The translations under genes were made by a program, and so were the position numbers. Shown piece after piece: positions 301 to 63,534 of a stretch of 64,000 nt of DNA (its first letter is position 1; each line of letters starts with the position of its first letter). The notes beneath the pieces are model-generated. The model was not told the origin of the DNA. It made no database searches and saw only the letters and a list, made by a program, of their open reading frames with translations. The stretch comes from Eledone cirrhosa (Eukaryota), in NCBI GenBank assembly GCA_964016885.1, contig OZ024765.1, positions 21,204,001 to 21,268,000 on the forward strand, written 5' to 3'.

Positions 301-760
301 ATAAGTTGAAAAAAAATGAAAACGAAAAACGAAATTTCATTTCTCACTCTTAGTATGGCACTTACTTAAATGTAAGTATGTATGTATACGTACATACATA
401 TATGTATACAGACGTACAGTAGCATGCATATATATATATATATATATATACATACATGCAGGTACACATACATATATGCACGCATCAGTTTAGCAGACGC
501 TTATTATAGCGCTCGCTTTGTTCGTTTGTTGACAAACGAACAAAGCGAGCGCTATAATAAGCGTCTGCTAAACTGATGCGTGCATATATGTATGTGTACC
601 TGCATGTATGTATATATATATATATATATATATGCATGCTACTGTACGTCTGTATACATATATGTATGTACGTATACATACATACTTACATTTAAGTAAG
701 TGCCATACTAAGAGTGAGAAATGAAATTTCGTTTTTCGTTTTCATTTTTTTTCAACTTAT
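301..760. repeat. ~230-bp-arm near-perfect palindrome heading the 471-bp array
   Basis: ATAAGTTGAAAA... at 301 is the reverse complement of ...TTTTCAACTTAT ending at 760; apex at 530-531 (GTTCGTTTGT-TG-ACAAACGAAC); mirror ORFs 382..576(+) and 485..679(-). Confidence 0.95.
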
Positions 761-6700: not shown

Positions 6701-6815
6701 TGCGTGCATATATGTATGTGTACCTGCATGTATGTATATATATATATATATATATATGCATGCTACTGTACGTCTGTATACATATATGTATGTACGTATA
6801 CATACATACTTACAT
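524..6815 (+). mobile_element. Tandem array of 13 full ~471-bp hammerhead-containing units plus a partial unit (non-autonomous retrozyme-like / PLE-derived)
   Basis: The same 66-aa ORF recurs at 470-473 bp spacing; units differ mainly in TA/T-run lengths plus a SNP near 6420; each has an intact HHR; flanked by (TA)n on both sides. Confidence 0.85.
879..923 (+). ncRNA. Type I hammerhead ribozyme, first of 13 identical copies (last at 6532-6576)
   Basis: Stem I AACGGTG/CATCGTT; CTGATGA 886-892; stem II AGCT-aaca-AGCT; GAAA 907-910; minimal stem III in palindromic ACTAGT; predicted cleavage after GUA at 916. Confidence 0.85.
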
Positions 6816-30271: not shown

Positions 30272-30290
30272 GCGTCATCTACAACATCAG
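30272..30290 (+). CDS. Probable 19-nt micro-exon of the ZP-domain gene (ASSTTS-G)
   Basis: Acceptor TTTCTATTTTTGTCAG and donor GTAAGT; if entered in phase 0 it ends in phase 1, matching exon 48301. Confidence 0.5.
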
Positions 30291-30295
30291 GTAAG

Positions 30296-30540
30296 TTCTT
30301 CTTCTTCTCCCACTTATTCTTGGGTGAGGTCATGGGGGGAAAGTCCTCAAACACTCCTTCCAGCAGGTCCTGTCAGAAGCAACCCTCTCCAACTGATCCA
30401 GCTGGATCCCCAAGCCAGACCAGCCAAGCTCATGGATGTTATCCAACCATCTTGCTCGTGGTCTACCCCTGGGTCTCCTGTCAGTTGGTTTTGCCTGTAA
30501 AATCTGTCCAGAGATTCTTTCCTGAGACATTCTCACCTCA
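30296..30540 (-). mobile_element. 3' end of an RTE-like LINE with (GAA)n tail
   Basis: MSQERISGQILQAKPTDRRPRGRPRARWLD...VASDRTCW; TTCTTCTTC tail. Confidence 0.8.
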
Positions 30541-33500
30541 TGTCTGTAGTATCAGAGCTGTGGTCTCTCAATTCAGAGATTCTTACCTGAGACATTCTAA
30601 CCACATGTCTGTAGTATCAGAGCTGTGGTCTCTCAATTCAGAGATTCTTACCTGAGACATTCTAACCACATGTCTGTAGTATCAGAGCTGTGATCTCTCA
30701 ATTCAGAGATTCTTTCCTCAGACATTCTAACCACAGGGTCTGTAGTATCAGAGCTGTGATCTCTCAATCCAGAGATTCTTTCCTCAGACATTCTAACCAC
30801 ATGTCTGTAGTATCAGAGCTGTGATCTCTCAATTCAGAGATTCTTTCCTCAGACATTCTAACCACATGTCTGTAGTGTCAGAGCTGTGGTCTCTCAATCC
30901 AGTGATTCTTTCCTCAGACATTCTAACCACATGTCTGTAGTATCAGAGCTGTGATCTCTCAATCCAGAGATTCTTTCCTCAGACATTCTAACCACATGTC
31001 TGTAGTATCAGAGCTGTGATCTCTCAATTCAGAGATTCTTTCCTCAGACATTCTAACCACATGTCTGTAGTATCAGAGCTGTGATCTCTCAATCCAGAGA
31101 TTCTTTCCTCAGACATTCTAACCACATGTCTGTAGTATCAGAGCTGTGATCTCTCAATCCAGAGATTCTTTCCTCAGACATTCTAACCACATGTCTGTAG
31201 TATCAGAGCTGTGATCTCTCAATCCAGAGATTCTTTCCTGAGACATTCTAACCACATGTCTGTAGTATCAGAGCTGTGGTCTCTCAATTCAGAGATTCTT
31301 ACCTGAGACATTCTAACCACATGTCTGTAGTGTCACAGCTGTGATCTCTCAATTCAGAGATTCTTTCCTCAGACATTCTAACCACATGTCTGTAGTATCA
31401 GAGCTGTGATCTCTCAATCCAGAGATTCTTTCCTCAGACATTCTAACCACATGTCTGTAGTATCAGAGCTGTGATCTCTCAATTCAGAGATTCTTTCCTC
31501 AGACATTCTAACCACATGTCTGTAGTATCAGAGCTGTGGTCTCTCAATCCAGTGATTCTTTCCTCAGACATTCTAACCACATGTCTGTAGTATAAGAGCT
31601 GTGATCTCTCAATCCAGAGATTCTTTCCTCAGACATTCTAACCACATGTCTGTAGTATCAGAGCTGTGAACTCTCAATTCAGAGATTCTTTCCTCAGACA
31701 TTCTAACCACATGTCTGTAGTATCAGAGCTGTGATCTCTCAATCCAGAGATTCTTTCCTCAGACATTCTAACCACATGTCTGTAGTATCAGAGCTGTGAT
31801 CTCTCAATCCAGAGATTCTTTCCTCAGACATTCTAACCACATGTCTGTAGTATCAGAGCTGTGATCTCTCAATCCAGAGATTCTTTCCTCAGACATTCTA
31901 ACCACATGTCTGTAGTATCACAGCTGTGATCTGCCAATTCAGAGATTCTTTCCTCAGACATTCTAACCACATGTCTGTAGTATCAGAGCTGTGATCTCTC
32001 AATTCAGAGATTCTTTCCTCAGACATTCTAACCACATGTCTGTAGTATCACAGCTGTGATCTCTCAATTCAGAGATTCTTTCCTCAGACATTCTAACCAC
32101 ATGTCTGTAGTATCACAGCTGTGATCTCTCAATCCAGTGATTCTTTCCTCAGACATTCTAACCACATGTCTGTAGTATCAGAGCTGTGATCTCTTAATCC
32201 AGAGATTCTTTCCTGAGACATTCTAACCACATGTCTGTAGTATCAGAGCTGTGATCTCTCAATTCAGAGATTCTTCCTCAGACATTCTAACCACATGTCT
32301 GTAGTATCAGAGCTGTGATCTCTCAATTCAGAGATTCTTCCTCAGACATTCTAACCACATGTCTGTAGTATCAGAGCTGTGATCTCTCAATTCAGAGATT
32401 CTTCCTCAGACATTCTAACCACATGTCTGTAGTATCAGAGCTATGATCTCTCAATCCAGAGATTCTTTCCTGAGACATTCTAACCACATGTCTGTAGTAT
32501 CAGAGCTGTGATCTCTCAATTCAGAGATTCTTTCCTCAGACATTCTAACCACATGTCTGTAGTATCACAGCTGTGATCTCTCAATCCAGAGATTCTTTCC
32601 TCAGACATTCTAAACACATGTCTGTAGTATCAGAGCTGTGGTCTCTCAATTCAGAGATTCTTTCCTCAGACATTCTAACCACATGTCTGTAGTATCAGAG
32701 CTGTGATCTCTCAATTCAGAGATTCTTTCCTCAGACATTCTAACCACATGTCTGTAGTATCAGAGCTGTGATCTCTCAATTCAGAGATTCTTCCTCAGAC
32801 ATTCTAACCACATGTCTGTAGTATCAGAGCTGTGGTCTCTCAATCCAGAGATTCTTTCCTGAGACATTCTAAACACATGTCTGTAGTATCAGAGCTGTGG
32901 TCTCTCAATTCAGAGATTCTTTCCTCAGACATTCTAACCACATGTCTGTAGTATCACAGCTGTGATCTCTCAATCCAAAGATTCTTTCCTGAGACATTCT
33001 AAACACATGTCTGTAGTATCAGAGCTGTGGTCTCTCAATTCAGAGATTCTTTCCTCAGACATTCTAACCACATGTCTGTAGTATCAGAGCTGTGATCTCT
33101 CAATTCAGAGATTCTTCCTCAGACATTCTAACCACATGTCTGTAGTATCAGAGCTGTGGTCTCTCAATCCAGAGATTCTTTCCTGAGACATTCTAAACAC
33201 ATGTCTGTAGTATCAGAGCTGTGGTCTCTCAATTCAGAGATTCTTACCTGAGACATTCTAAACACATGTCTGTAGTATCAGAGCTGTGGTCTCTCAATTC
33301 AGAGATTCTTTCCTCAGACATTCTAACCACATGTCTGTAGTATCACAGCTGTGATCTCTCAATTCAGAGATTCTTTCCTCAGACATTCTAACCACAGGGT
33401 CTGTAGAATCACAGCTGTGATCTGCCAATTCAGAGATTCTTTCCTCGGACATTCTAACCACATGTCTGTAGTATCACAGCTGTGGTCTCTCAATTCAGAG

Positions 33501-35915
33501 ATTCTTTCCTCAGACATTCTAACCACAGGGTCTGTAGTATCAGAGCTGTGATCTCTCAATTCAGAGATTCTTTCCTCAGACATTCTAACCACATGTCTGT
33601 AGTATCACAGCTGTGGTCTCTAAATTCAGAGATTCTTTCCTCAGACATTCTAACCACATGTCTGTAGTATCAGAGCTGTGATCTCTCAATTCAGAGATTC
33701 TTTCCTCAGAAATTCTAACCACATGTCTGTAGTATCACAGCTGTGGTCTCTCAATTCAGAGATTCTTTCCTCAGACATTCTAACCACATGTCTGTAGTAT
33801 CACAGCTGTGGTCTCTCAATTCAGAGATTCTTTCCTCAGACATTCTAACCACAGAGTCTGTAGTATCAGAGCTGTGATCTCTCAATTTAGAGATTCTTTC
33901 CTCAGACATTCTAACCACATGTCTGTAGTATCACAGCTGTGGTCTCTCAATTCAGAGATTCTTTCCTCAAACATTCTAACCACAGGGTCTGTAGTATCAG
34001 AGCTGTGATCTCTCAATTCAGAGATTCTTTCCTCAGACATTCTAACCACATGTCTGTAGTATCACAGCTGTGATCTCTCAATTCAGAGATTCTTTCCTCA
34101 GACATTCTAACCACATGTCTGTAGTATCAGAGCTGTGATCTCTCAATTCAGAGATTCTTTCCTCAGACATTCTAACCACATGTCTGTAGTATCACAGCTG
34201 TGGTCTCTCAATTCAGAGATTCTTTCCTCAGACATTCTAACCACATGTCTGTAGTATCACAGCTGTGATCTCTCAATTCAGAGATTCTTTCCTCAGACAT
34301 TCTAACCACATGTCTGTAGTATCAGAGCTGTGATCTCTCAATTCAGAGATTCTTTCCTCAGACATTCTAACCACATGTCTGTAGTATCAGAGCTGTGATC
34401 TCTCAATTCAGAGATTCTTTCCTCAGACATTCTAACCACATGTCTGTAGTATCACAGCTGTGATCTCTCAATTCAGAGATTCTTTCCTCAGACATTCTAA
34501 CCACATGTCTGTAGTATCACAGCTGTGATCTCTCAATTCAGAGATTCTTTCCTCAGACATTCTAACCACATGTCTGTAGTATCAGAGCTGTGATCTCTCA
34601 ATTCAGAGATTCTTTCCTCAGACATTCTAACCACATGTCTGTAGTATCAGAGCTGTGATCTCTCAATTCAGAGATTCTTTCCTCAGACATTCTAACCACA
34701 TGTCTGTAGTATCACAGCTGTGGTCTCTCAATTCAGAGATTCTTTCCTCAGACATTCTAACCACATGTCTGTAGTATCACAGCTGTGGTCTCTCAATTCA
34801 GAGATTCTTTCCTCAGACATTCTAACCACAGAGTCTGTAGTATCAGAGCTGTGATCTCTCAATTTAGAGATTCTTTCCTCAGACATTCTAACCACATGTC
34901 TGTAGTATCACAGCTGTGGTCTCTCAATTCAGAGATTCTTTCCTCAGACATTCTAACCACAGGGTCTGTAGTATCAGAGCTGTGATCTCTCAATTCAGAG
35001 ATTCTTTCCTCAGACATTCTAACCACATGTCTGTAGTATCAGAGCTGTGGTCTCTCAATTCAGAGATTCTTTCCTCAGACATTCTAACCACATGTCTGTA
35101 GTATCACAGCTGTGATCTCTCAATTCAGAGATTCTTTCCTCAGACATTCTAACCACAGGGTCTGTAGTATCAGAGCTGTGATCTCTCAATTCAGAGATTC
35201 TTTCCTCAGACATTCTAACCACATGTCTGTAGTATCACAGATGTGATCACTAAATTCAGAGATTCTTTCCTCAGACATTCTAACCACATGTCTGTAGTAT
35301 CAGAACTGTGATCTCTCAATTTACAGATTCTTTCCTCAGACATTCTAACCACAGGGTCTGTAGTATCAGAGCTGTGATCTCTCAATTCAGAGATTCTTTC
35401 CTCAGACATTCTAACCACATGTCTGTAGTATCACAGCTGTGATCACTCAATTCAGAGATTCTTTCCTCAGACATTCTAACCACATGTCTGTAGTATCAGA
35501 GCTGTGATCTCTCAATTTACAGATTCTTTCCTTAGACATTCTAACCACATGTCTGTAGTATCAGAGCTGTGGTCTCTCAATTCAGAGATTCTTTCCTCAG
35601 ACATTCTAACCACAGGGTCTGTAGTATCAGAGCTGTGATCTCTCAATTCAGAGATTCTTTCCTCAGACATTCTAACCACATGTCTGTAGTATCACAGCTG
35701 TGATCACTCAATTCAGAGATTCTTTCCTCAGACATTCTAACCACATGTCTGTAGTATCAGAGCTGTGATCTCTCAATTTACAGATTCTTTCCTCAGACAT
35801 TCTAACCACATGTCTGTAGTATCACAGCTGTGATCTCTCAATTTACAGATTCTTTCCTCAGACATTCTAACCACATGTCTGTAGTATCAGAGCTGTGATC
35901 TCTCAATTCAGAGAT
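30509..35915. repeat. 65-bp minisatellite, ~83 copies, derived from RTE coding sequence
   Basis: Unit CATGTCTGTAGTATCAGAGCTGTGATCTCTCAATTCAGAGATTCTTTCCTCAGACATTCTAACCA; minus strand reads L*IERSQL*YYRHVVRMSEERIS. Confidence 0.92.
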
Positions 35916-38011: not shown

Positions 38012-40195
38012 TCATCATCATCATCATCATCATCAACGTTTAACGTCCGTGTTCCACGCTTGCATGGGTTTGGACGGGGGTAGTCCCACTTGAGGCAAGA
38101 GTGGTTGTCTTGCTCGTATAGGACTGTCTGGCAGGTTTTCTACAGCTGGATGCCCTTCCTAACACCAACCACATTTACAGTGTGGGTCTGGGAGGTTTTT
38201 ACCGTGTTGCCTACACGGCCACATTACAGCGTGGACTGTGTGTTTTTTTGTCGTGACACCTACACGATCTCATTTGTTTCGGCCTGGATGGCGCGGCACC
38301 AACATAACTTTACATAGGACGGGGTGGTGTGGATGGGGTGGGGGTGGTGGTGGTGGGACGGGGTGTATTTTGTTAGAGATGCCTACTGGCAAGGCGGGTC
38401 TTCTCTGTTACTGAGTACCGCCAAAGGTCTCGGTCCAGTGACATTGTCTTGGAGAGGTGTAAGTGTGTGAGGTCGGAGTTTATCAGCTCGTCCCAGGTTT
38501 TTCTAGGTCTGCCTATTCCGTGGCTACCGTCTATCTTTATTGCCCTGCACTTTGTTATACAGCTATCGACTTTCATGCGCATCACGTGTCCATACCAACG
38601 TAGCCTTCTCTCGAGTAAACAACATCTGATCCCTCTTATCTCTAATTTTTTCCTTAGTTCGTTTATGCTTTGCCGTTCACGTATATTACTGTTACACATC
38701 CAGCGGAGCATGCAAGCTTCGTTCCTCTCTAGTCTGCGTATATCCTCTGCACACAATGCCCAGGTCTCACTGCCATGCAACATTGCTGTTCGTATGCAGG
38801 CATCGTACAACCTGCCTTTCATTTTTAGGGAGAACCCTTTAGCAGCTAATAGTGGTATAAGCTCTCTGAACTTTTTCCAACCAGTTCTGACTCTAGCTAC
38901 AGTACTTTCAGAGCACCCTCCCCCACTGCTGATTTTATCGCCCAGGTAACGGAAGCTGTCCACTATTTCTATAGAACCCTCTGCGCAATTGAAAGAGCTA
39001 GTATTGTGTGGGCACTTGCTGCTACTTATTGCACCAGAACACCGGCCACATGTAAAATCTATGTTCTTAGTTAGCTTACCTGTGATCCCACTACATCTTT
39101 TATGCACCCATACTTTGCATTTAGGACACAAAATGGAGTTTCTACCTACGCCTTTCCTACACACCGAGCACGACCATTTCCCAGAAGGGACCGCCGCCTT
39201 GTTTTCTTTCCTACAAACTAGAACTTTGGTCTTAGCCAGGTTAATTTTAAGTCCTTTTGACTCTAGGCCGTGCTTCCATGTTTGGAATTTCTTCTCTAGC
39301 TCGGCCATTGATTCCGCTATGAGTGTCAGGTCGTCTGCGTATAGGAGTTCCCATGGGCAGCCTGTCTTGAACTCCTCTGTTATAGCCTGAAGGGCAATAA
39401 TAAATAGTAGGGGGCTGAGAACAGAGCCCTGATGGACGCCAACTTTTACGCTAAACTCTTCACTATATTCGTTGTTAATTCTAACCTTGCTGACTGTTTC
39501 TTTATACATGGCTTGTATAGCCCTCACAAGCCATTCGTCAACGCCTAGTTTTCTAAGAGCCCACCAGATAATGGAGCGGGGGACTCTGTCGAAGGCTTTC
39601 TCCAAGTCGACAAAAGCTAAGTAGAGGGGTTTACCTTTAGCTAGGTACTTCTCCTGTAGTTGTCGTACTATGAAAAGAGCGTCTGTGGTACTTTTGCCTG
39701 ACACAAACCCGAACTGCATTTCATCTAGGTCAATTCTCTCTCTGATTAGTTGCGCTATTACTTTTTCTGTGACCTTCATGACCTGGTCGATTAATTTAAT
39801 GCCTCTATAGTTACTCCTATCTAGGGCGTCTCCTTTACCCTTATAACAGTTAACGATGATGCTGCTATGCCAGTCCTTCGGAACAACCCCATTCTGTACG
39901 ACTTGGTTAACTATGCGGGTGACCATGGTGTGTCCCACCGTGCCAGATGCCTTCAGCATCTCAGCAACTATTTCCGAAGGCCCAGCCGCCTTACCTGTCT
40001 TCATATCCTTGATTGCCTTACTTATTATACTCCCCTCGACTAACACTGCTGGTCCCTCTATTGGGTCGACATGGGGGAGACTGTCTTTCTCCCATTTATT
40101 CTCCTCATTTAGTAGCCTTTCATAGTGACACTTCCAAGCTGCCTTCTTATCAGTGTCGGTGATGGCAAGTATGCCATCATCGTTAAGTACACACT
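38012..40195 (-). mobile_element. 5'-truncated RTE-clade LINE with an open RT frame (38373 to ~40195)
   Basis: [32 protein letters not shown], Cys/His finger, [17 protein letters not shown]; (GAT)n tail at 38012-38035. Confidence 0.95.
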
Positions 40196-40256
40196 TCAGG
40201 CAATATTTATTAGAATGGTCTTCAAGTGTGTAGACATTTTTTTGAGACACTCTATG

Positions 40257-41214: not shown

Positions 41215-41621
41215 CGTTTCCAACAGTTCATAACTTCAAGGTTATGAACATGTTTCCAACAGTTCATAACTTCAAAGTAATGAACCTGTTTCCAACAGTT
41301 CATAACTTCAAAGTAATGAACCTATTTCCAACAGTTCATAACTTCAAGGTTATGAACCTGTTTCCAACAGTTCATAACTTCAAGGTTATGAACATATTTC
41401 CAACAGTTCATAACTTCAAAGTTATGAACATGTTTCCAACAGTTCATAACTTCAAGGTTATGAACATGTTTCCAACAGTTCATAACTTCAAGGTTATGAA
41501 CATGTTTCCAACAGTTCATAACTTCAAGGTTATGAACATGTTTCCAACAGTTCATAACTTCAAGGTTATGAACATGTTTCCAACAGTTCATAACTTCAAA
41601 GTTATGAACTTGTTTCCAACA
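41215..41621. repeat. 36-bp minisatellite, ~11 copies, with an internal hairpin
   Basis: Unit CATGTTTCCAACAGTTCATAACTTCAAGGTTATGAA; GTTCATAAC/GTTATGAAC dyad. Confidence 0.9.
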
Positions 41622-45730: not shown

Positions 45731-45942
45731 ATTAGAAAATATATAGCTTTCACCGTATTTTTAACTAAAGGAATTTTAGCTTGATAACGGGGTTTAGAAC
45801 CCTCAGATAAATGGAAAAAGATGAGTATTTACGTACATACGTCAATACTCATCTTTTTCCATTTATCTGAGGGTTCTAAACCCCGTTATCAAGCTAAAAT
45901 TCCTTTAGTTAAAAATACGGTGAAAGCTATATATTTTCTAAT
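45731..45942. repeat. ~100-bp-arm perfect palindrome
   Basis: ATTAGAAAATATATAGCTTTCACCG... inverted around ~45836. Confidence 0.9.
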
Positions 45943-46030: not shown

Positions 46031-48261
46031 ATGACGAAAAAGAAGATGATTTAGAGACATATGACATAGATAATAACTGGAATTTCTTACATGACAACTT
46101 ACTGCAGGCTACTGATGAAACTTGTGGCTGGAGCAGAGCTCCAACCAGACAGAGAGTGACCTGGTGGTGGAACAGCACAGTAGATAAGGCTATTAGAGAC
46201 AAAAGACTAGCATGGAAGGCTTGGAAAAAGGGTGGGAGTAGAGAAGGATATACAGCCGCTAAGAGAGAAGCTAGACGTCAGGTGTACTTAGCACACAGGG
46301 AGGCTGAGAGTAGGAGGTTTGCCAATGTTCTGTGACAGGAAGATCAGAGACGTGCGGTGTTCCACATTGCAAGGCAGTGTGTCAATGCAAATGGATGTTG
46401 TTGGAGATAAATGTGTCTGGAATGATGCTGGTGTACTTAGTGTCACGAATGATCAGAAAAAGGAGGCCTGGAAATGTCATTATGAAAGACTGATGAATGT
46501 GGAGAACGAATGGGAGAGAGAGAAATTACCCTTAGTAGCTCCGACAGAGGGACCAGCTATTGAGATTGACGAATATAGGGTCCAAGAGGCGATTAAGGAA
46601 ATGAAAAATGGTAAGGCTGCAGGACCATCGGGGATAGTTGCTGAGATGCTGAAGGCATCAGGGGACGTAGGCACTAAACTGGTTGCACGCATCATCAATC
46701 AGGTTATATATGGTGGTGTCATACCCAAAGACTGGTGCAGCAGTATTCTCATAAATTGCTACAAAGGTAAAGGGGATGCTCTGGAGAGGAGCAAGTATAG
46801 AGGTATAAAACTGATGGATCAAGTTATGAAAGTGGCAGAAAGGATATTAGCACAACTAATTAGAGAAAGGGTCAAACTAGATGAGATGCAGTTAGGTTTT
46901 GTGCCTGGAAAGAATACAACAGATGCCATCTTTTTGGTGAGACAATTACAAGAGAGGTTCTTAGAGGAAAATAAGCCACTATACTTAGCCTTTGTTGACC
47001 TAGAGAAGGCATTTGATAGGGTAGCCCGATCTGTCATCTGGTGTTCCCTAAGGAAACTAGGTGTTGAGGAATGGCTTGTGAGGACAGTGCAAACTTTGTA
47101 CAGAGGTACTGTCAGTAAAGTCAGGGTAGGAATGGAGTTTCGTGAGAAATTCCAGATACAAGTAGGAGTACATCAAGGTTCGGTCCTCGGCCCGCTCTTG
47201 TTCATTATAGTCCTCCAAGCCATATCAGAGGAGTTTAAGACTGGCGGTCCATGGGAACTTCTCTATGCTGATGATCTGGTTCTTATAGCAGAATCAGTAG
47301 AGGAGCTAGAGAATAAATTCTGGCTATGGAAACAGCCGTTGGAAGCAAGAGGACTGAGAGTGAATCTAGCTAAGACAAAAGTGTTGATGAGTAGAAAAGA
47401 GGACAAAACTCTGATTCCGTCAGGGAAATGGCCATGTTCGATATGCAGGAAAGGAACTGGCATAAATTCTATAAAATGCACACAATGCAGATCCTGGGTA
47501 CACAAGAGATGTAGCGGGATAGCAGGCAAACTAACAGGTAGGGAGAAATATGTATGCAGTAGATGTACAGGGAAATTAGACAGTAGAAGTCGCATTGATA
47601 GACACATTTTTCAAATGCAGGCGGGTGCTGTAGAAGTGGTGGATAGCTTCCGGTACCAAGGAGATCAGATTAGCATGGGAGGGGGGTGTCCAGAGGCCAT
47701 AGTATCTAGAATAAGGATGGGTTGGAAGAAGTTTAGGGAGCTGCTTCCTCTGCTGATGAAGAAGGGTTTCTCCCTGCGTATGAAAGGCCGGTTATATGAT
47801 GCCTGTGTGAGGAGCGCAATGCTGCATGGTAGTGAGACATGGGCAGCAACTGCAGAGGATATGCGACGGCTGGAGAGAAATGAGGCAAGCATGCTCCGTT
47901 GGATGTGCAATGTCAATGTGCGTGAACGACCCAGCATGAATGTGTTGAGAGAGAAACTGTGTCTGAGTGGGATAGAATGTAGTGTACGGGAGAGGAGACT
48001 GCGGTGGTATGGACATGTGATGCGCATGGAGGATGACCGATGGGTGAAGAAGTGCCAGGAAATGCCAGTTGAAGGAAGACGTGGTAGAGGTAGACCACGA
48101 AAAATATGGGCGGAGGTGGTGAGAACAGACCTCAGATCATTGAAGCTCACGGTGGAGATGACGAAGGACCGTGACGAGTGGAGAGATGCTGTGCTGAATA
48201 AGACCCGTCCCACCCTTGCAAGCAGGGAAGAGCGGACGTAAAATGATGATGATGATGATGA
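46031..48261 (+). mobile_element. 5'-truncated RTE-clade LINE (second subfamily)
   Basis: RT ORF to 48241 with [21 protein letters not shown] and a Cys/His finger; stop/frameshift near 46330-46390; (GAT)n tail. Confidence 0.95.
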
Positions 48262-48300: not shown

Positions 48301-48572
48301 GCCGTTATGTGTGTGACCAGTCAAGGAAGATGATAATATTCCTGTATAGCATCAGAGGTTCAAATCACAGCCGAGACAGCAATAATGAGGACTTCCCAGA
48401 TACAACATATACTTCTAATGTTTATGATATCTATATAGAAGAGATGAGAGGGCGCTGCAGTAAACAAACAGGGGAAGTAACTGGTACAGGGTCAACTGAT
48501 GACCCCTATACATTGTGTATTTTGGTGAAACCCACATCAGGGGGCTTGTCTAATGACACCTGTCTTCTTCAG
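48301..48572 (+). CDS. Exon of a probable ZP-domain secreted protein (GRYVCDQSRKM...DTCLLQ)
   Basis: TACAG acceptor, CAG|GTAAGA donor, 272 nt open, phase 1 to phase 0, Cys-containing non-repetitive sequence. Confidence 0.75.
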
Positions 48573-48616
48573 GTAAGACAGTTGATACATCACATCCTTT
48601 TCCTTTACTCTTTCGC

Positions 48617-49055
48617 TAACCCGAACCTTAACTCCTAAGTCTAATCCTAACTAACCCTTAACCATGACCCTAATCTTAACTCTAACCCTAAATCTAACCA
48701 TAACCCCTAACCATGACTCTAACTCTAACCCTAACTGTAACCTTATCCCTAACCCTAAAACTCCAACCTTAACCCTAACCCTTAACCTTAACCCTAGCCA
48801 TAATCCATAAATCTAACCCTTAAGTTTAAACACTAAACTTAACCCAAACCCCTAACCCTAACCCTAATCCTTAACCCTAACCTAAACTCTAACAGTAAAC
48901 CCTAACCATAACCCTAACCCTAACCCCAACTCTAACCATAACCCTAACGATAACCCTTAACCTTAACCCTAGCCTTAACCCTAGCCTTAACCCTAACCTA
49001 AACTCTAACACTAAACCCTAACCATAACCCTTAACTCTAACCTTAAACCAAACCC
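48617..49055. repeat. Degenerate (TAACCC)n telomere-like tract, intronic
   Basis: CCCTAA / CTCTAA / CCTTAA variants. Confidence 0.85.
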
Positions 49056-50647: not shown

Positions 50648-50975
50648 TTAGTTCAAAATATTAATAAATATAGACATTCATGTGATCAAATATATTTTAT
50701 TATATATATTTCAGAGGTACTGTGCTGTTTCCTCAGTACGTCCTCATCAGATAAAATAAATTGATGTCTGACAAACCTGAACTGTGCTGATGGTTCAATT
50801 CCAGTCTTGGCAGTGATTGGAATTGAACCACCAGCACAGTTGAGGTATGTCAGACATCAATTTATTTTATCTGATGAGGACGTACTGAGGAGACAGCACA
50901 GTACCTCTGAAATATATATAATAAAATATATTTGATCACATGAATGTCTATATTTATTAATATTTTGAATTAATA
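50648..50975. mobile_element. Palindromic element with HHRs at 50693-50758 (-) and 50863-50928 (+)
   Basis: TATTTTAT CTGATGA G GA.GTACTG..CAGTAC.TC T GAAA TATATA TA ATAAAATA; apex near 50810. Confidence 0.8.
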
Positions 50976-52079: not shown

Positions 52080-53152
52080 AGGTAGCCCTAGGAAGGTAGC
52101 CCTAGGGCCACGTACACCAGAAGTTTCCCCTGCTAGAGGTAGCTAGCTCACCACCTATGGTGGTGAGTAGGGAGGTAGCCCTAGGGCCAAGTACACCAGA
52201 AGTTTCCCCTGCTAGAGGTAGCCAGCTCACCACCTATGGTGGTGAGTAGGGAGGTAGCCCTAGGGCCAAGGACACCAGAAGTCTCCACTGCTAGGGGTAG
52301 TCAGCTCAGCACCTATGATAAGTAGGGAGGTAGCCCTAGGGCCAAGGACACCAGAAGTCTCCACTGCTAGGGGTAGTCAGCTCAGCACCTATGGTGGTAA
52401 GTAGGAAGGTAGCCCTAGGGCCAAGTACACCAGAAGTTTCCCCTGCTAGAGGTAGCCAGCTCAGCACCTATGGTGGTGAGTAGGGAGGTAGCCCTAGGGC
52501 CAAGGACACCAGAAGTCTCTACTGCTAGAAGTAGCCAGCTCAGCACCTATGGTGGTAAGTAGGGAGGTAGCCCTAGGGCCAAGGACACCAGAAGTCTCCA
52601 CTGCTAAAAGTAGCCAGCTCAGCACCTATGGTGGTAAGTAGGGAGGTAGCCCTAGGGCCAAGGACACCAGAAGTCTCCACTGTTAGGGGTAGCCAGCTCA
52701 GCACCTATGGTGGTGAGTAGGGAGGTAGCCCTAGGGCCAAGGACACCAGAAGTCTCCACTGCTAAAAGTAGCCAGCTCAGCACCTATGGTGGTAAGTAGG
52801 GAGGTAGCCCTAGGGCCAAGGACACCAGAAGTCTCCACTGTTAGGGGTAGCCAGCTCAGCACCTATGGTGGTAAGTAGGGAGGTAGCCCTAGGGCCAAGG
52901 ACACCAGAAGTCTCCACTGTTAGGGGTAGCCAGCTCAGCACCTATGGTGGTGAGTAGGGAGGTAGCCCTAGGGCCAAGGACACCAGAAGTCTCCACTGCT
53001 AAAAGTAGCCAGCTCAGCACCTATGGTGGTAAGTAGGGAGGTAGCCCTAGGGCCAAGGACACCAGAAGTCTCCACTGTTAGGGGTAGCCAGCTCAGCACC
53101 TATGGTGGTAAGTAGGGAGGTAGCCCTAGGGCCAAGGACACCAGAAGTCTCC
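52080..53152. repeat. 79-bp GC-rich minisatellite, ~13 copies
   Basis: Unit GGGAGGTAGCCCTAGGGCCAAGGACACCAGAAGTCTCCACTGTTAGGGGTAGCCAGCTCAGCACCTATGGTGGTRAGTA. Confidence 0.92.
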
Positions 53153-53295
53153 AGAGCCAAGGTCGCGATAGCGAACCCGTCGGAGAGCGACACGTCTTGA
53201 ACCAACATTTGATGGTATATTGATCCCTGCTGTCACATTTAATTCACTATGTTTTGGAGTAATTCTCCCGATTTCTCTTGTTTGTCCATCTGCAG

Positions 53296-53453
53296 AGGAA
53301 GGCCGCCAGCTCCACGTACCGGGTGAAAGTGGTCATACAGCAACGACCGTTCCTAGTCCTGGCAACTGACCAGATCTTCAGCCTGTCATGTGACTTCAGC
53401 AACACCTCACAGTCGACTGCCATCTTGGGACCAGATCTCATACATATTGATGG
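53296..53453 (+). CDS. Exon of the probable ZP-domain protein (RKAASSTYRVKVVIQQRPFLVLATDQIFSLSCDFSNTSQSTAILGPDLIHIDG)
   Basis: CTGCAG acceptor, GG|GTAATG donor, phase 0 to phase 2; Y...VVIQ...D..F...C.F pattern resembles the last ZP-N strands. Confidence 0.8.
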
Positions 53454-53467
53454 GTAATGTATAGACA

Positions 53468-53790
53468 TTGTGGTAGTGGTGGTGGTGGTGTTGGGGAGTG
53501 TGGTGGTGGTGGGGAGTGTGGTGGTGGTGGTGGGGAGTGTGGTTGTGGTGGTGGTGGTGGGGAGTGTGGTGGTGGTGGGGAGTGTGGTGGTGGTGGCGGT
53601 GGTGGTAGCAGTGGCGGTGGTAGTGGTGGTAGTGGTGGTGGTGATGGTGGTGGTGGTGGTAGTGGTGGTGGTGATGGTCGGAGTGGTGGTGTTCGTGGTG
53701 GTTTTGTGGTGGTGGTGGGGAGTGTGATGATGGTGGTAGTGGTGCTAGTGGTGTTGGTGGTAGTGGTGGTGGGGGTAGTGGTGGTAGTGA
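53468..53790. repeat. (GGT)n microsatellite
   Basis: Low-complexity tract. Confidence 0.9.
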
Positions 53791-53817: not shown

Positions 53818-56800
53818 GCCTGGTCCCTAATAACCCCTCACCTGGTCTATTACAGACAACCACCCCACAACATTGCTACAGTAACAAGATCAACAGCCTC
53901 ACCTGGTCCCTAATAACCCCTTACCTGGTCTATTTCAGGCAACCACCCCACAACATTGCTACAGTAACAAGATCAACAGCCTCACCTGGTCCCTAATAAC
54001 CCCTTACCTGGTCTATTACAGACAACCACCAAACAACATTGCTACAGTAACAAGATCAACAGCCTCACCTGGTCCCTAATAACCCCTTACCTGGTCTATT
54101 ACAGATAACCACCCCACAACATTGCTACAGTAACAAGATCAACAGCCTCACCTGGTCCCTAATAACCCCTTACCTGGTAATTTCAGACAACCACCAAACA
54201 ACATTGCTACAATAACAAGATCAACAGCCTCACCTGGTCCCTAATAACCCCTTACCTTGTCTATTACAGACAACCACCAAACAACATTGCTACAGTAACA
54301 AGATCAACAGCCTCACCTGGTCCCTAATAACCCCTTACCTTGTCTATTACAGACAACCACCAAACAACATTGCTACAGTAACAAGATCAACAGCCTCACC
54401 TGGTCCCTAATAACCCCTTACCTGGTCTATTACAGACAACCACCAAACAACATTGCTACAGTAACAAGATCAACGGCCTCACCTGGTCCCTAATAACCCC
54501 TTACCTGGTCTATTTCAGGCAACCACCAAACACCATTGCTACAGTAACAAGATCAACAGCCTCACCTGGTCTCTAATAACCCCTTACCTGGTCTATTACA
54601 GGCAACCACCAAACAACATTGCTACAGTAACAAGATCAACAGCCTCACCTGGTCCCTAATAAACCCTTACCAGGTCTATTTCAGGCAACCACCAAACAAC
54701 ATTGCTACAGTAACAAGATCAACAGCCTCACCTGGTCCCTAATAACCCCTCACCTGGTCTATTACAGACAACCACCCCACAACATTGCTACAATAACAAG
54801 ATCAACAGCCTCACCTGGTCCCTAATAACCACTTACCTGGTCTATTTCAGGCAACCACCAAACAACATTGCTGCAGTAACAAGATCAACAGCCTCACCTG
54901 GTCCCTAATAACCCCTTACCAGGTCTATTTCAGGCAACCACCAAACAACATTGCTACAGTAACAAGATCAACAGCCTCACCTGGTCCCTAATAACCCCTT
55001 ACCTGGTCTATTACAGGCAACCACCAAACACCTTTGCTACAGTAACAAAATCAACAGCCTCCCCTGGTCCCTAATAACCCCTTACCTGGTCTATTACAGA
55101 CAAGCACCCCACAACATTGCTACAGTAACAAGATCAACAGCCTCACCTGGTCCCTAATAACACCTTACCTGGTCTATTTCAGGCAACCACCAAACAACAT
55201 TGCTACAGTAACAAGATCAACAGCCTCACCTGGTCCCTAATAACCCCTTACCTGGTCTATTTCAGGCAACCACCAAACAACATTGCTACAGTAACAAGAT
55301 CAACAGCCTCACCTGGTCCCTAATAACCCCTTACCTGGTCTATTTCAGGCAACCACCAAACAACATTGCTACAGTAACAAGATCAACAGCCTCACCTGGT
55401 CCCTAATAACCCCTTACCTGGTCTATTTCAGGCAACCACCAAACAACATTGCTACAGTAACAAGATCAACAGCCTCACCTGGTCCCTAATAACCCCTTAC
55501 CTGGTCTATTTCAGGCAACCACCAAACAACATTGCTACAGTAACAAGATCAACAGCCTCACCTGGTCCCTAATAACCCCTTACCTGGTCTATTTCAGGCA
55601 ACCACCAAACAACATTGCTACAGTAACAAGATCAACGGCCTCACCTGGTCCCTAATAACCCCTTACCTGGTCTATTTCAGGCAACCACCAAACACCATTG
55701 CTACAGTAACAAGATCAACAGCCTCACCTGGTCCCTAATAACCCCTTACCTGGTCTATTACAGGCAACCACCAAACACCTTTGCTACAGTAACAAAATCA
55801 ACAGCCTCCCCTGGTCCCTAATAACCCCTTACCTGGTCTATTACAGACAACCACCCCACAACATTGCTACAGTAACAAGATCAACAGCCTCACCTGGTCC
55901 CTAATAACACCTTACCTGGTCTATTTCAGGCAACCACCAAACAACATTGCTACAGTAACAAGATCAACAGCCTCACCTGGTCCCTAATAACCCCTTACCT
56001 GGTCTATTTCAGGCAACCACCAAACAACATTGCTACAGTAACAAGATCAACAGCCTCACCTGGTCCCTAATAACCCCTTACCTGGTCTATTTCAGGCAAC
56101 CACCAAACAACATTGCTACAGTAACAAGATCAACGGCCTCACCTGGTCCCTAATAACCCCTTACCTGGTCTATTACAGACAACCACCAAACAACATTGCT
56201 ACAGTAACAAGATTGACAGCCTCACCTGGTCCCTAATAACCCCTTACCTGGTCTATTACAGACAACCACCAAACAACATTGCTACAATAACAAGATCAAC
56301 AGTCTCACCTGGTCCCTAATAACCCCTTACCTTGTATATTTCAGGCAACCACCAAACACCATTGCTACAGTAACAAGATCAACAGCCTCACCTGGTCCCT
56401 AATAACCCCTTACCTGGTCTATTTCAGGCAACCACCAAACAACATGGCTACAGTAACAAGATCAACAGCCTCACCTGGTCCCTAATAACCCCTTACCTTG
56501 TCTATTTCAGGCAACCACCAAACAACATTGTTAGAGTAACAAGATCAACAGCCTCACCTGGTTCCTAATAACACCTTACCTGGTCTATTACAGACAACCA
56601 CCCCACAACATTGCTACAGTAACAAGATCAACAGCCTCACCTGGTCCCTAATAACACCTCACCTGGTCTATTACAGACAACCACCCCACAACATTGCTAC
56701 AGTAACAAGATCAACAGCCTGACCTGGTCCCTAATAACCCCTTACCTGGTCTATTTCAGACAACCACCCCACAACATTGCTACAGTAACAAGATCAACAG

Positions 56801-59800
56801 CCTCACCTGGTCCCTAATAACCCCTTACCTGGTCTATTTCAGGCAACCACCAAACAACATTGCTACAGTAACAAGATCAACAGCCTCACCTGGTCCCTAA
56901 TAACCCCTTACCTGGTCTATTTCAGGCAACCACCAAACAACATTGCTACAGTAACAAGATCAACAGCCTCACCTGGTCCCTAATAACCCCTTACCTTGTA
57001 TATTTCAGGCAACCACCAAACAACATTGCTACAGTAACAAGATCAACAGCCTCACCTGGTCCCTAATAACCCCTTACCTGGTCTATTTCAGGAAACAAAC
57101 CAAACAACATTGCTACAGTAACAAGATCAACAGCCTCACCTGGTCCCTAATAACACCTTATCTGGTCTATTTCAGGCAACCACCAAACAACATTGCTACA
57201 GTAACAAGATCAACAGCCTCACCTGGTCCCTAATAACCCCTTACCTTGTATATTTCAGGCAACCACCAAACACCATTGCTACAGTAACAAGATCAACAGC
57301 CTCACCTGGTCCCTAATAACCCCTTACCTGGTCTATTTCAGGCAACCACCAAACAACATTGCTACAGTAACAAGATCAACAGCCTCACCTGGTCCCTAAT
57401 AACCCCTTACCTTGTCTATTTCAGGCAACCACCAAACAACATTGCTACAGTAACAAGATCAACAGCCTCACCTGGTCCCTAATAACCCCTTACCTTGTAT
57501 ATTTCAGGCAACCACCAAACACCATTGCTACAGTAACAAGATCAACAGCCTCACCTGGTCCCTAATAACCCCTTACCTGGTCTATTACAGGCAACCACCC
57601 CACAACATTGCTACAGTAACAAGATCAACAGCCTCACCTGGTCCCTAATAACCCCTTACCTGGTCTATTACAGACAACCACCAAACAACATTGCTACAGT
57701 AACAAGATCAACAGCCTCACCTGGTCCCTAACAACTCCTTACCTGGTCTATTTCAGGCAACCACCCCACAACATTGCTACAGTAACAAGATCAACAGCCT
57801 CACCTGGTCCCTAATAACCCCTTACCTTGTATATTTCAGGCAACCACCAAACAACATTGCTACAGTAACAAGATCAACAGCCTCACCTGGTCCCTAATAA
57901 CCCCTTACCTTGTATATTTCAGGCAACCACCAAACAACATTGCTACAGTAACAAGATCAACAGCCTCACCTGGTCCCTAATAACCCCTTACCTTGTATAT
58001 TTCAGGCAACCACCAAACAACATTGCTACAGTAACAAGATCAACAGCCTCACCTGGTCCCTAATAACCCCTTACCTTGTATATTTCAGGCAACCACCAAA
58101 CAACATTGCTACAGTAACAAGATCAACAGCCTCACCTGGTCCCTAATAACCCCTTACCTGGTCTATTTCAGGCAACCACCAAACAACATTGCTACAGTAA
58201 CAAGATCAACAGCCTCACCTGGTCCCTAATAACTCCTTTCCTGGTCTATTTCAGGCAACCACCAAACAACATTGCTACAGTAACAAGATCAACAGCCTCA
58301 CCTGGTCCCTAATAACCCCTTACCTGGTATATTTCAGGCAACCACCCCGCAACATTGCTACAGTAACAAGATCAACAGCCTCACCTGGTCCCTAATAACC
58401 CCTTACCTGGTCTATTACAGGCAACCACCCCACAACATTGCTACAGTAACAAGATCAACAGCCTCACCTGGTCCCTAATAACCCCTTACCTGGTCTATTA
58501 CAGAAAACCACCAAACAACATTGCTACAGTAACAAGATCAACAGCCTCACCTGGTCCCTAACAATTCCTTACCTGGTCTATTTCAGGCAACCACCAAACA
58601 ACATTGCTACAGTAACAAGATCAACAGCCTCACCTGGTCCCTAATAACCCCTTACCTGGTCTATTACAGGCAACCACCCCACAACATTGCTACAGTAACA
58701 AGATCAACAGCCTCACCTGGTCCCTAATAACACCTTACCTGGTCTATTTCAGGCAACCACCAAACAACATTGCTACAGTAACAAGATCAACAGCCTCACC
58801 TGGTCCCTAATAACCCCTTACCTGGTCTATTTCAGGCAACCACCAAACAACATTGCTACAGTAACAAGATCAACAGCCTCACCTGGTCCCTAATAACCCC
58901 TTACCTTGTATATTTCAGGCAACCACAAAACAACATTGCTACAGTAACAAGATCAACAGCCTCACCTGGTCCCTAATAACCCCTTACCTGGTCTATTTCA
59001 GGCAACCACCAAACAACATTGCTACAGTAACAAGATCAACAGCCACACCTGGTCCCTAATAACCCCTTACCTGGTCTATTTCAGGCAACCACCAAACACC
59101 ATTGCTACAGTAACAAGATCAACAGCCACACCTGGTCCCTAATAACCCCTTACCTGGTCTATTTCAGGCAACCACCAAACACCATTGCTACAGTAACAAG
59201 ATCAACAGCCTCACCTGGTCCCTAATAACCCCTTACCTGGTCTATTTCAGGCAACCACCAAACACCATTGCTACAGTAACAAGATCAACAGCCACACCTG
59301 GTCCCTAATAACCCCTTACCTGGTCTATTTCAGGCAACCACCAAACACCATTGCTACAGTAACAAGATCAACAGCCACACCTGGTCCCTAATAACCCCTT
59401 ACCTGGTCTATTTCAGGCAACCACCAAACACCATTGCTACAGTAACAAGATCAACAGCCTCACCTGGTCCCTAATAACCCCTTACCTGGTCTATTTCAGA
59501 CAACCACCCCACAACATTGCTACAGTAACAAGATCAACAGCCTCACCTGGTCCCTAATACCTCCTTACCTTGTCTATTTCAGGCAACCACCAAACACCAT
59601 TGCTACAGTAACAAGATCAACAGCCTCACCTGGTCCCTAATAACCCCTTACCTGGTCTATTTCAGACAACCACCCCACAACATTGCTACAGTAACAAGAT
59701 CAACAGCCTCACCTGGTCCCTAATAACCCCTTACCTGGTCTATTACAGGCAACCACCCCACAACATTGCTACAGTAACAAGATCAACAGCCTCACCTGGT

Positions 59801-62800
59801 CCCTAATAACCCCTTACCTGGTCTATTACAGACAACCACCAAACAACATTGCTACAGTAACAAGATCAACAGCCTCACCTGGTCCCTAACAACTCCTTAC
59901 CTGGTCTATTTCAGGCAACCACCCCACAACATTGCTACAGTAACAAGATCAACAGCCTCACCTGGTCCCTAATAACCCCTTACCTTGTATATTTCAGGCA
60001 ACCACCAAACAACATTGCTACAGTAACAAGATCAACAGCCTCACCTGGTCCCTAATAACCCCTTACCTTGTATATTTCAGGCAACCACCAAACAACATTG
60101 CTACAGTAACAAGATCAACAGCCTCACCTGGTCCCTAATAACCCCTTACCTTGTATATTTCAGGCAACCACCAAACAACATTGCTACAGTAACAAGATCA
60201 ACAGCCTCACCTGGTCCCTAATAACCCCTTACCTTGTATATTTCAGGCAACCACCAAACAACATTGCTACAGTAACAAGATCAACAGCCTCACCTGGTCC
60301 CTAATAACCCCTTACCTGGTCTATTTCAGGCAACCACCAAACAACATTGCTACAGTAACAAGATCAACAGCCTCACCTGGTCCCTAATAACTCCTTTCCT
60401 GGTCTATTTCAGGCAACCACCAAACAACATTGCTACAGTAACAAGATCAACAGCCTCACCTGGTCCCTAATAACCCCTTACCTGGTATATTTCAGGCAAC
60501 CACCCCGCAACATTGCTACAGTAACAAGATCAACAGCCTCACCTGGTCCCTAATAACCCCTTACCTGGTCTATTACAGGCAACCACCCCACAACATTGCT
60601 ACAGTAACAAGATCAACAGCCTCACCTGGTCCCTAATAACCCCTTACCTGGTCTATTACAGAAAACCACCAAACAACATTGCTACAGTAACAAGATCAAC
60701 AGCCTCACCTGGTCCCTAACAACTCCTTACCTGGTCTATTTCAGGCAACCACCAAACAACATTGCTACAGTAACAAGATCAACAGCCTCACCTGGTCCCT
60801 AATAACCCCTTACCTGGTCTATTACAGGCAACCACCCCACAACATTGCTACAGTAACAAGATCAACAGCCTCACCTGGTCCCTAATAACACCTTACCTGG
60901 TCTATTTCAGGCAACCACCAAACAACATTGCTACAGTAACAAGATCAACAGCCTCACCTGGTCCCTAATAACCCCTTACCTGGTCTATTTCAGGCAACCA
61001 CCAAACAACATTGCTACAGTAACAAGATCAACAGCCACACCTGGTCCCTAATAACCCCTTACCTGGTCTATTTCAGGCAACCACCAAACACCATTGCTAC
61101 AGTAACAAGATCAACAGCCACACCTGGTCCCTAATAACCCCTTACCTGGTCTATTTCAGGCAACCACCAAACACCATTGCTACAGTAACAAGATCAACAG
61201 CCTCACCTGGTCCCTAATAACCCCTTACCTGGTCTATTTCAGGCAACCACCAAACACCATTGCTACAGTAACAAGATCAACAGCCACACCTGGTCCCTAA
61301 TAACCCCTTACCTGGTCTATTTCAGGCAACCACCAAACACCATTGCTACAGTAACAAGATCAACAGCCACACCTGGTCCCTAATAACCCCTTACCTGGTC
61401 TATTTCAGGCAACCACCAAACACCATTGCTACAGTAACAAGATCAACAGCCTCACCTGGTCCCTAATAACACCTTACCTGGTCTATTTCAGGCAACCACC
61501 AAACACCATTGCTACAGTAACAAGATCAACAGCCTCACCTGGTCCCTAATAACCCCTTACCTGGTCTATTTCAGACAACCACCCCACAACATTGCTACAG
61601 TAACAAGATCAACAGCCTCACCTGGTCCCTAATACCTCCTTACCTTGTCTATTTCAGGCAACCACCAAACACCATTGCTACAGTAACAAGATCAACAGCC
61701 TCACCTGGTCCCTAATAACCCCTTACCTGGTCTATTTCAGACAACCACCCCACAACATTGCTACAGTAACAAGATCAACAGCCTCACCTGGTCCCTAATA
61801 CCTCCTTACCTGGTCTATTTCAGGCAACCACCAAACAACATTGCTACAGTAACAAGATCAACAGCCTCACCTGGTCCCTAATAACCCCTTACCTGGTCTA
61901 TTTCAGGCAACCACCAAACAACATTGCTACAGTAACAAGATCAACAGCCTCACCTGGTCCCTAATAACCCCTTACCTGGTCTATTTCAGGCAACCACCAA
62001 ACAACATTGCTACAGTAACAAGATCAACAGCCTCACCTGGTCCCTAATAACACCTTACCTGGTCTATTACAGACAACCACCAAACAACATTGCTACAGTA
62101 ACAAGATCAACAGCCTCACCTGGTCCCTAATAACCCCTTACCTTGTATATTTCAGACAACCACCAAACAACATTGCTACAGTAACAAGATCAACAGCCTC
62201 ACCTGGTCCCTAACAACTCCTTACCTGGTCTATTTCAGGCAACCACCAAACAACATTGCTACAGTAACAAGATCAACAGCCTCACCTGGTCCCTAATAAC
62301 CCCTTACCTTGTATATTTCAGGCAACCACCAAACAACATTGCTACAGTAACAAGATCAACAGCCTCACCTGGTCCCTAACAACTCCTTACCTGGTCTATT
62401 TCAGGCAACCACCAAACACCATTGCTACAGTAACAAGATCAACAGCCTCACCTGGTCCCTAATAACCCCTTACCTGGTCTATTTCAGGCAACCACCAAAC
62501 AACATTGCTACAGTAACAAGATCAACAGCCTCACCTGGTCCCTAATAACCCCTTACCTGGTCTATTTCAGGCAACCACCAAACACCATTGCTACAGTAAC
62601 AAGATCAACAGCCTCACCTGGTCCCTAACAACTCCTTACCTGGTCTATTTCAGGCAACCACCAAACACCATTGCTACAGTAACAAGATCAACAGCCTCAC
62701 CTGGTCCCTAACAACTCCTTACCTGGTCTATTTCAGGCAACCACCCCACAACATTGCTACAGTAACAAGATCAACAGCCTCACCTGGTCCCTAATAACCC

Positions 62801-63444
62801 CTTACCTTGTATATTACAGGCAACCACCAAACACCATTGCTACAGTAACAAGATCAACAGCCTCACCTGGTCCCTAATAACCCCTTACCTTGTATATTAC
62901 AGGCAACCACCAAACACCATTGCTACAGTAACAAGATCAACAGCCTCACCTGGTCCCTAATAACCCCTTACCTGGTCTATTACAGACAACCACCAAACAC
63001 CATTGCTACAGTAACAAGATCAACAGCCTCACTTGGTCCCTAATAACCCCTTACCTGGTCTATTTCAGGCAACCACCAAACACCATTGCTACAGTAACAA
63101 GATCAACAGCCTCACCTGGTCCCTAATAACCCCTTACCTTGTATATTACAGACAACCACCAAACACCATTGCTACAGTAACAAGATCAACAGCCTCACCT
63201 GGTCCCTAACAACCCCTTACCTTGTATATTACAGACAACCACCAAACACCATTGCTACAGTAACAAGATCAACAGCCTCACCTCGTCCCTAATAACCCCT
63301 TACCTTGTATATTTCAGGCAACCACCAAACACCATTGCTACAGTAACAAGATCAACAGCCTCACCTGGTCCCTAATAACCCCTTACCTTGTATATTACAG
63401 GCAACCACCAAACACCATTGCTACAGTAACAAGATCAACAGCCA
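53818..63444. repeat. 83-bp satellite, ~116 copies, made of an intron 3' end plus exon start
   Basis: Unit CCTCACCTGGTCCCTAATAACCCCTTACCTGGTCTATTTCAG|GCAACCACCAAACAACATTGCTACAGTAACAAGATCAACAG. Confidence 0.95.
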
Positions 63445-63534
63445 CATTAGATGTTGTTCAAGATTCTACAAAAATTAACCGAGATTTACCGCTTGGAAAA
63501 TCAATACGACTGCAGGCTGAAGTTAATGGAACTG
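63401..63534 (+). CDS. Exon of the probable ZP-domain protein (QPPNTIATVTRSTATLDVVQDSTKINRDLPLGKSIRLQAEVNGT)
   Basis: TTACAG acceptor in the last satellite unit, phase 2 start matching exon 53296-53453, open frame, ACTG|GTAAAT donor; resembles the ZP-N/ZP-C linker and ZP-C start. Confidence 0.75.

Follow-up and report, generated by a model that had tools for sequence, protein, structure and literature searches.

The DNA analyzed here is a window of 64,000 nt from Eledone cirrhosa (assembly GCA_964016885.1, contig OZ024765.1, positions 21,204,001 to 21,268,000 of the forward strand). It holds the first traced exons of a gene for a molluscan ZP-domain protein, and between two of them, exons B and C, lies a minisatellite in which exon C's own 3' splice site is repeated 116 times. 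Positions are those of the window unless a contig handle precedes them. The features at the locus are the following:

48301..48572, + strand: exon A, 272 nt, phase 1 in and phase 0 out, recognised by weak tblastn matches to molluscan ZP proteins
53296..53453, + strand: exon B, 158 nt, phase 0 in and phase 2 out, the predicted ZP-N's second half, recognised by homology
53470..53789, + strand: G-rich (GTG)n tract between the exon B donor and the array, from sequence and folding
53819..63443, + strand: 83-bp minisatellite of 116 units, from Tandem Repeats Finder (TRF) and unit-by-unit reading
54174..54182, + strand: donor-like CTG/GTAATT (donor 54177), 8.0 bits by matrix score, arisen in an 82-bp variant unit
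63316..63318, + strand: nearest decoy acceptor, matrix score 10.0 bits where the true site has 9.4, giving a 217-nt exon with a stop
63372..63400, + strand: true 3' splice site, with CTAAT at 63372-63376, the predicted branch A at 63375 and AG at 63399-63400
63401..63534, + strand: exon C, 134 nt, phase 2 in and phase 1 out, covering the ZP-N/ZP-C linker and the first part of ZP-C, recognised by homology and starting inside the last unit

The exon B donor at 53453 opens a 9,947-nt intron that contains the array, and by homology the acceptor at 63401 is the real one. The exon B peptide has one relative, Argonauta hians GAB1605586.1 (73% identical), which extends beyond the junction and matches exon C, at 58% identity, starting with the first codon of that exon; the repeated 43 nt of exon C are therefore coding. 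With Octopus vulgaris CAI9741724.1, exon C shares 70% identity (both proteins are predicted gene models, not transcripts), and in a neighbouring paralogue an intron of the same phase 2 occupies the same position. An earlier first-pass annotation, made from the letters of the window, had placed the donor at 53453, the acceptor at 63401 and the next donor at 63534, and all three are found there. It had also considered that the acceptor may lie outside the repeat, which is ruled out by alignment with the orthologues; these and the paralogue place it inside.

The gene, for which the same annotation had considered that it may be an unexpressed pseudogene, looks intact: its seven exons (A to F, including E2; C26:21252301-21322790) are open in frame, are bounded by AG and GT and agree in phase at all six junctions. 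Against the O. vulgaris protein, identity is 93% for exon D and 91% for exon E. The predicted protein resembles molluscan ZP-domain proteins (PF00100 Zona_pellucida, PF25272 VERL_C) in its ZP-C, in a furin-like site (RFKR in exon E2) and, in exon F, in a hydrophobic C-terminal run taken from the translation to be a membrane segment. In Pfam the ZP-C of the orthologue reaches 37.8 bits (cut-off 24.6) and VERL_C is also above its cut-off; exon E alone gives ZP-C at 20 bits (E 0.0008), below the cut-off. The exon A and exon B peptides alone match no Pfam family, and in the relatives VERL_C covers the homologous stretch. A 5' exon with a signal peptide was looked for and not found. A further homologue search found nothing, and two other candidates from the homologue search were dropped as unrelated repeats. 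Around the first exons we observed a possible 19-nt micro-exon at 30272-30290, with good acceptor and donor and a phase that would fit exon A; a degenerate telomere-like (CTAACC)n tract (48616-49055), 44 bp after the exon A donor; and a 79-bp array of 13.5 copies (52089-53153) that stops 143 bp before exon B and leaves its acceptor outside.

The description of the array as about 116 tandem copies of the exon's own 3' splice site stands. TRF gives a period of 83, 116.0 copies, 95% matches and 0% indels, and 116 acceptor positions were located, the first at 53856 and the last at 63401, with spacings of 83 (113 times), 82 (once) and 84 (once). Each unit joins ~40 nt of the intron 3' end, made of a branch-like motif, a pyrimidine-rich stretch and CAG, to the first 43 nt of exon C; the annotation had this structure right and the exon part, at ~42 nt, slightly short. 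CAG directly precedes the acceptor position in every unit (116/116), and the branch-like motif at -29 is CTAAT in 104, CTAAC in 9 and shifted in 1 of the 114 units analyzed. Only from the last unit are the unique exon sequence and a donor entered, as had been described. The window contains no N. When the 3.0-Gb genome was searched with the unit sequence and the best candidates were scored, 116 of 116 matches fell in this array.

Most columns of the unit are invariant, beyond the AG alone. The array is built from 51 distinct unit sequences, an identical 12-unit block recurs 26 units apart, and variants are shared in runs. Two decoys, at 62820 and 62903, match the true site at every one of the 83 bp. 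Resemblance to the true site rises towards the 3' end, as the first-pass annotation had noticed. The exact motif CCTTGTATATTACAG occurs in 5 of 114 units, all of them among the last 8, and the last 10 decoys (acceptors upstream of the true one) differ from the true site by 2.8 mismatches against 4.8 for the others. This polarity is real but modest: over 113 decoys Spearman rho is -0.21 (p 0.022) and over the 3'-most 75 units it is -0.07 (p 0.53), with units that are not independent in either case. Since local minisatellite homogenisation suffices for it, no function is needed. At codon 5 (63413-63415), ACC (Thr) is found in the coding copy and in 31 of 116 units, including 11 of the last 13, and AAC, for the Asn that both relatives (O. 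vulgaris and Argonauta) have there, in the other 85. As ACC is common to the coding copy and the 3' units, it appears that sequence passes between the array and the coding exon.

With the frame set by exon B, all 115 upstream acceptors lead to a premature stop, so their use would truncate the protein, as had been expected. The annotation had also stated that any earlier AG gives one fixed read and then TAA. This holds for 112 of the 115, which yield 19 residues (with residue variants) before TAA, and fails for three, where the stop follows 1 residue (54105), 15 residues (56677) or, after a frame shift, 47 residues (57092). Site strength was scored with a rough matrix of 133 acceptors of this genome, obtained by iterated self-selection from hidden Markov model hits. 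The true acceptor, at 9.4 bits, stands at the 40th percentile of these; 33 of the 115 decoys score at least as high and 76 come within 1 bit of it or better, which rules out a stronger true site as the selector. Among the donors, that of exon C is good (8.6 bits, 134 nt from the true acceptor) and that of exon B is weak (3.6 bits). Real donors have their 5th percentile at 3.4 bits, and the GTs within normal units range from -0.7 to 2.5 bits. With the variant donor at 54177, a pseudo-exon of 72, 155 or 238 nt that carries a stop and ends at 54176 could be formed, and weaker donor-like sites of 6.1 bits lie at 58327 and 60485.

One possible option is that RNA structure selects the last acceptor. 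It was rejected, as the predicted accessibility of the true AG, its pyrimidine stretch and its branch motif falls among the values of the last 11 decoys. Pairing with the G-rich tract was rejected as well: four units fold with it at -238.5 kcal/mol, and 30 shuffled units give -264.2 +/- 17.0 kcal/mol; the pairing is therefore compositional, and it would reach only the first ~five units. Two other schemes do not fit the units. Recursive splicing through ratchet points would need GT after AG, and the units have GC, AC, AA, AT or GA, with bases far from the donor consensus (GC-type donors were left unscored). An array of alternative cassette exons would have to work with one strong and two moderate donors among the units, and every upstream read hits a stop. 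Because neither sequence strength nor folding picks the last site, exon definition is the likely selector, and here the annotation, which regarded it as necessary, had argued well. In exon definition a donor promotes the nearest upstream acceptor, and only the last site is followed by the remainder of exon C with its good donor. The process is also described in the Discussion of PMC1557585.

The array is a known kind of structure and a large new case of it. Passages of PMC3087553 describe amphioxus 'mirage' minisatellites with units of 10-160 bp, of which the acceptor type occurs in the globin BflGb6, and a further mirage in BflGb9; they report 3-6 copies for BflGb6 and, by reverse transcription PCR, correct splicing without aberrant mRNA. 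The same correct splicing is stated, in a passage of PMC3902484, for the mirages of amphioxus Adh, troponin C and PGBD5. The Eledone array has the structural features of a mirage: it spans the boundary of what appears to be a real gene by tandem repetition of an intron 3' end with the 5' part of the next exon, the splice signals are kept, the 83-bp unit is within the reported range, the units evolve in concert, and both boundary types occur within one gene family. Unlike BflGb6, it has 116 units rather than 3-6, it belongs to a mollusc and not to a cephalochordate, its terminal coding unit shares in the homogenisation (being identical to two internal units), and its correct splicing is predicted from sequence, not shown by reverse transcription PCR as in BflGb6. 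Among the matches listed, in a literature consisting mostly of papers outside subscription, there was no cephalopod report of such arrays.

Another comparison is the 37-bp variable number tandem repeat (VNTR) of human F7 intron 7, where a donor is present in 5-9 copies, of which splicing uses the first alone and is reportedly not disturbed by the others; the same text mentions that early experiments with duplicated splice sites gave opposite results (PMC1557585). In both cases the terminal unit is the authentic site and the others are unused pseudo-sites, functional ones in F7 and ones predicted to be unused here. However, in F7 the first donor wins, whereas in the present array the repeated site is an acceptor and its final copy must be the one used, which a first-come scan as in F7 does not explain. 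The model of Rogers for intron gain by AG/GT duplication, as outlined in PMC3265369, resembles our case in that a short tandem duplication within a gene multiplies a splice signal. Intron gain was nevertheless rejected, as no unit has GT after its AG and the intron, common to the paralogue, is older than the array. The repeats in the part of PMC10078293 that treats them lie near splice sites and are not built from them.

The structure is not unique in this genome either. Out of 253 exon hits of the VERL_C, kinase and kinesin profiles, 169 were sampled (170 were listed and one, at a locus edge, was dropped), picked by rank and by hand and weighted to small chromosomes; TRF was run and every array within 150 bp was read by eye. 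This gave one distinct acceptor repeat, a 120-bp one at a kinesin exon, present at four loci, flagged in three and degenerate in the fourth:

C1636:373395-373910: kinesin acceptor repeat, 4.3 units
C1636:258599-259113: kinesin acceptor repeat, 4.3 units
C18:5898415-5898691: kinesin acceptor repeat, 2.3 units
C22 near 18819100: kinesin acceptor repeat, ~2 units, degenerate

The number of units differs between these copies of the locus, which bears indirectly on the length differences between alleles or cells that belong to the picture of a mirage. The surroundings are rich in such material. Of the 324 kb surrounding the window, 25.7% is covered by 27 non-simple minisatellites (period of at least 20, at least 5 copies), two others exceed 10 kb, and several are visibly built from transposon-like fragments. 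The ends of 15 of the 27 were read and, besides the donor array of the paralogue, none was seen to include the splice site of a traced exon. From summed unit lengths of ~2.4 kb in ~243 kb of collapsed sequence, 1% per site, a rough expectation of ~0.3 arrays is obtained over the ~29 traced splice sites of both genes; two are seen, of which one was ascertained. Further arrays in the window are 471 bp x 13.4 (519-6815), 65 bp x 83.1 (30509-35915) and 36 bp x 11.3 (41216-41621). Reverse-transcriptase-like copies of a long interspersed nuclear element (LINE) were recognised by eye at ~38050-40200 (- strand) and 46050-48250 (+ strand), and an 80-bp array (C26:21153653-21155171) consists of a fragment of such an element. 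Inverted repeats that are long, have short spacers and resemble miniature inverted-repeat transposable elements lie at ~50650-50970 and 45780-45930, the former mimicking an exon (AG...GT) with closed frames. Another VERL_C-type gene has its coding 3' end in three tandem copies of 156 bp (C27:20930568-20931037).

The paralogue lies 98 kb upstream on the opposite strand, head-to-head, and matches CAI9741722.1 and GAB1605587.1. The identities to Octopus and Argonauta proteins make an octopod the likely source of the DNA. Its acceptor at the shared intron is unrepeated, and its array is at the other end of the intron:

C26:21156687-21159140, - strand: 35/36-bp array of the end of the paralogue's own exon B and its donor, from TRF and reading

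This array is the direct counterpart of the F7 VNTR and has 66 GTAAG sites in 3.7 kb, 27 of them with the same 9-mer as the first. The paralogue also serves as a control for protein change. In the 14 repeated codons of exon C, 5 of 10 sites at which O. vulgaris and Argonauta agree are changed, against 5 of 25 elsewhere in the exon; in the paralogue, with its single acceptor, the same comparison gives 6 of 12 against 6 of 23. An array-driven acceleration of protein change is ruled out by this control (6/12 vs 5/10, Fisher p 1.0).

Based on these data we consider it likely that the array is a tolerated minisatellite of the mirage type, whose last acceptor is chosen by exon definition. It would have originated by one 83-bp duplication across the boundary of the intron and exon C, and its growth to 116 units was likely by slippage and unequal exchange. 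The last acceptor would pair with the donor 134 nt downstream, while decoys would be left without a nearby donor. A stop well upstream of later exon junctions is the usual setting of nonsense-mediated decay (NMD). The decoy products carry stops far upstream of four later junctions and so would be NMD targets; the rare mis-spliced RNAs would presumably be cleared in this way, and the array may be near-neutral. Exon definition also predicts where leakage would occur, namely at 63318, through the 217-nt exon, and through a pseudo-exon closed by the donor at 54177. Several points weigh against this explanation. The choice of acceptor is predicted from the DNA, acceptor arrays in the literature, with their 3-6 copies, are shorter by a factor of twenty to forty, and a first-come rule for acceptors would favour a decoy. 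The nearest decoy outscores the true site, and its 217-nt exon is of a length reached by 33 of 132 sampled exons, of which 5 reach 300 nt, in a sample that leans to long exons. One unit has gained a strong donor (54177), and arrays are present at the same homologous intron of both paralogues, somewhat above the ~0.3 expected.

The same observations on site strength can be read as a leaky, non-adaptive locus, in which a sizeable part of the splicing goes to decoys, chiefly the one at 63318 or the pseudo-exon that ends at 54176, and the products are degraded, so that expression falls with array length or variant units and the array is mildly harmful. The many decoys near the strength of the true site, the nearest one above it, and the weak exon B donor beside an internal donor of 8.0 bits would fit such leakage, as would a passage of a human survey according to which repeats at exon-intron boundaries can yield alternative transcripts (PMC2812944). 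However, the downstream exons are strongly conserved, and the amphioxus mirages are reported, in the passages cited above, without aberrant mRNA (PMC3087553, PMC3902484); we regard this option as unlikely. Quite improbable, in our view, is a gene that is silent or newly dead, or a copy number that is an assembly error, in which case no splicing problem would exist. The signal-peptide exon that was not found and the known mis-sizing of long arrays in assemblies could point there, but the seven exons carry no stops and match in phase, exons D and E retain their identity to O. vulgaris, the window is free of N, and the unit variants are discrete and lie in shared blocks, not at random.

Another hypothesis is adaptive: both paralogues would have independently amplified opposite ends of the linker intron, and the arrays would be a length-tunable switch between a membrane-anchored full-length product and a secreted ZP-N-only one. 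The intron sits between the predicted ZP-N and ZP-C, mis-splicing in both paralogues would end translation right after ZP-N, and CAG is kept in all units. Yet most columns of the unit are invariant, and the retention of CAG thus reflects youth and homogenisation; the stops lie in the usual NMD setting, a like array is found at an unrelated kinesin exon, and the density of minisatellites makes a second array unsurprising. We therefore hold this hypothesis to be very improbable. The first-pass annotation had suggested both that array length tunes expression and that a purposeful ZP-N-only isoform is made. Neither is supported, since the structure belongs to a described class, the mirages, and recurs at unrelated exons of the genome.

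The tolerated, mirage-type array relies on a mechanism that is already known, and its value is that of a natural splicing experiment: 115 decoys, two of them identical to the real site over 83 bp, are transcribed before the real site. Junction reads at this locus would show whether a first-come rule or exon definition applies. Gene annotation is also broken by such arrays, as seen in both relatives, whose models of this gene are fragments.

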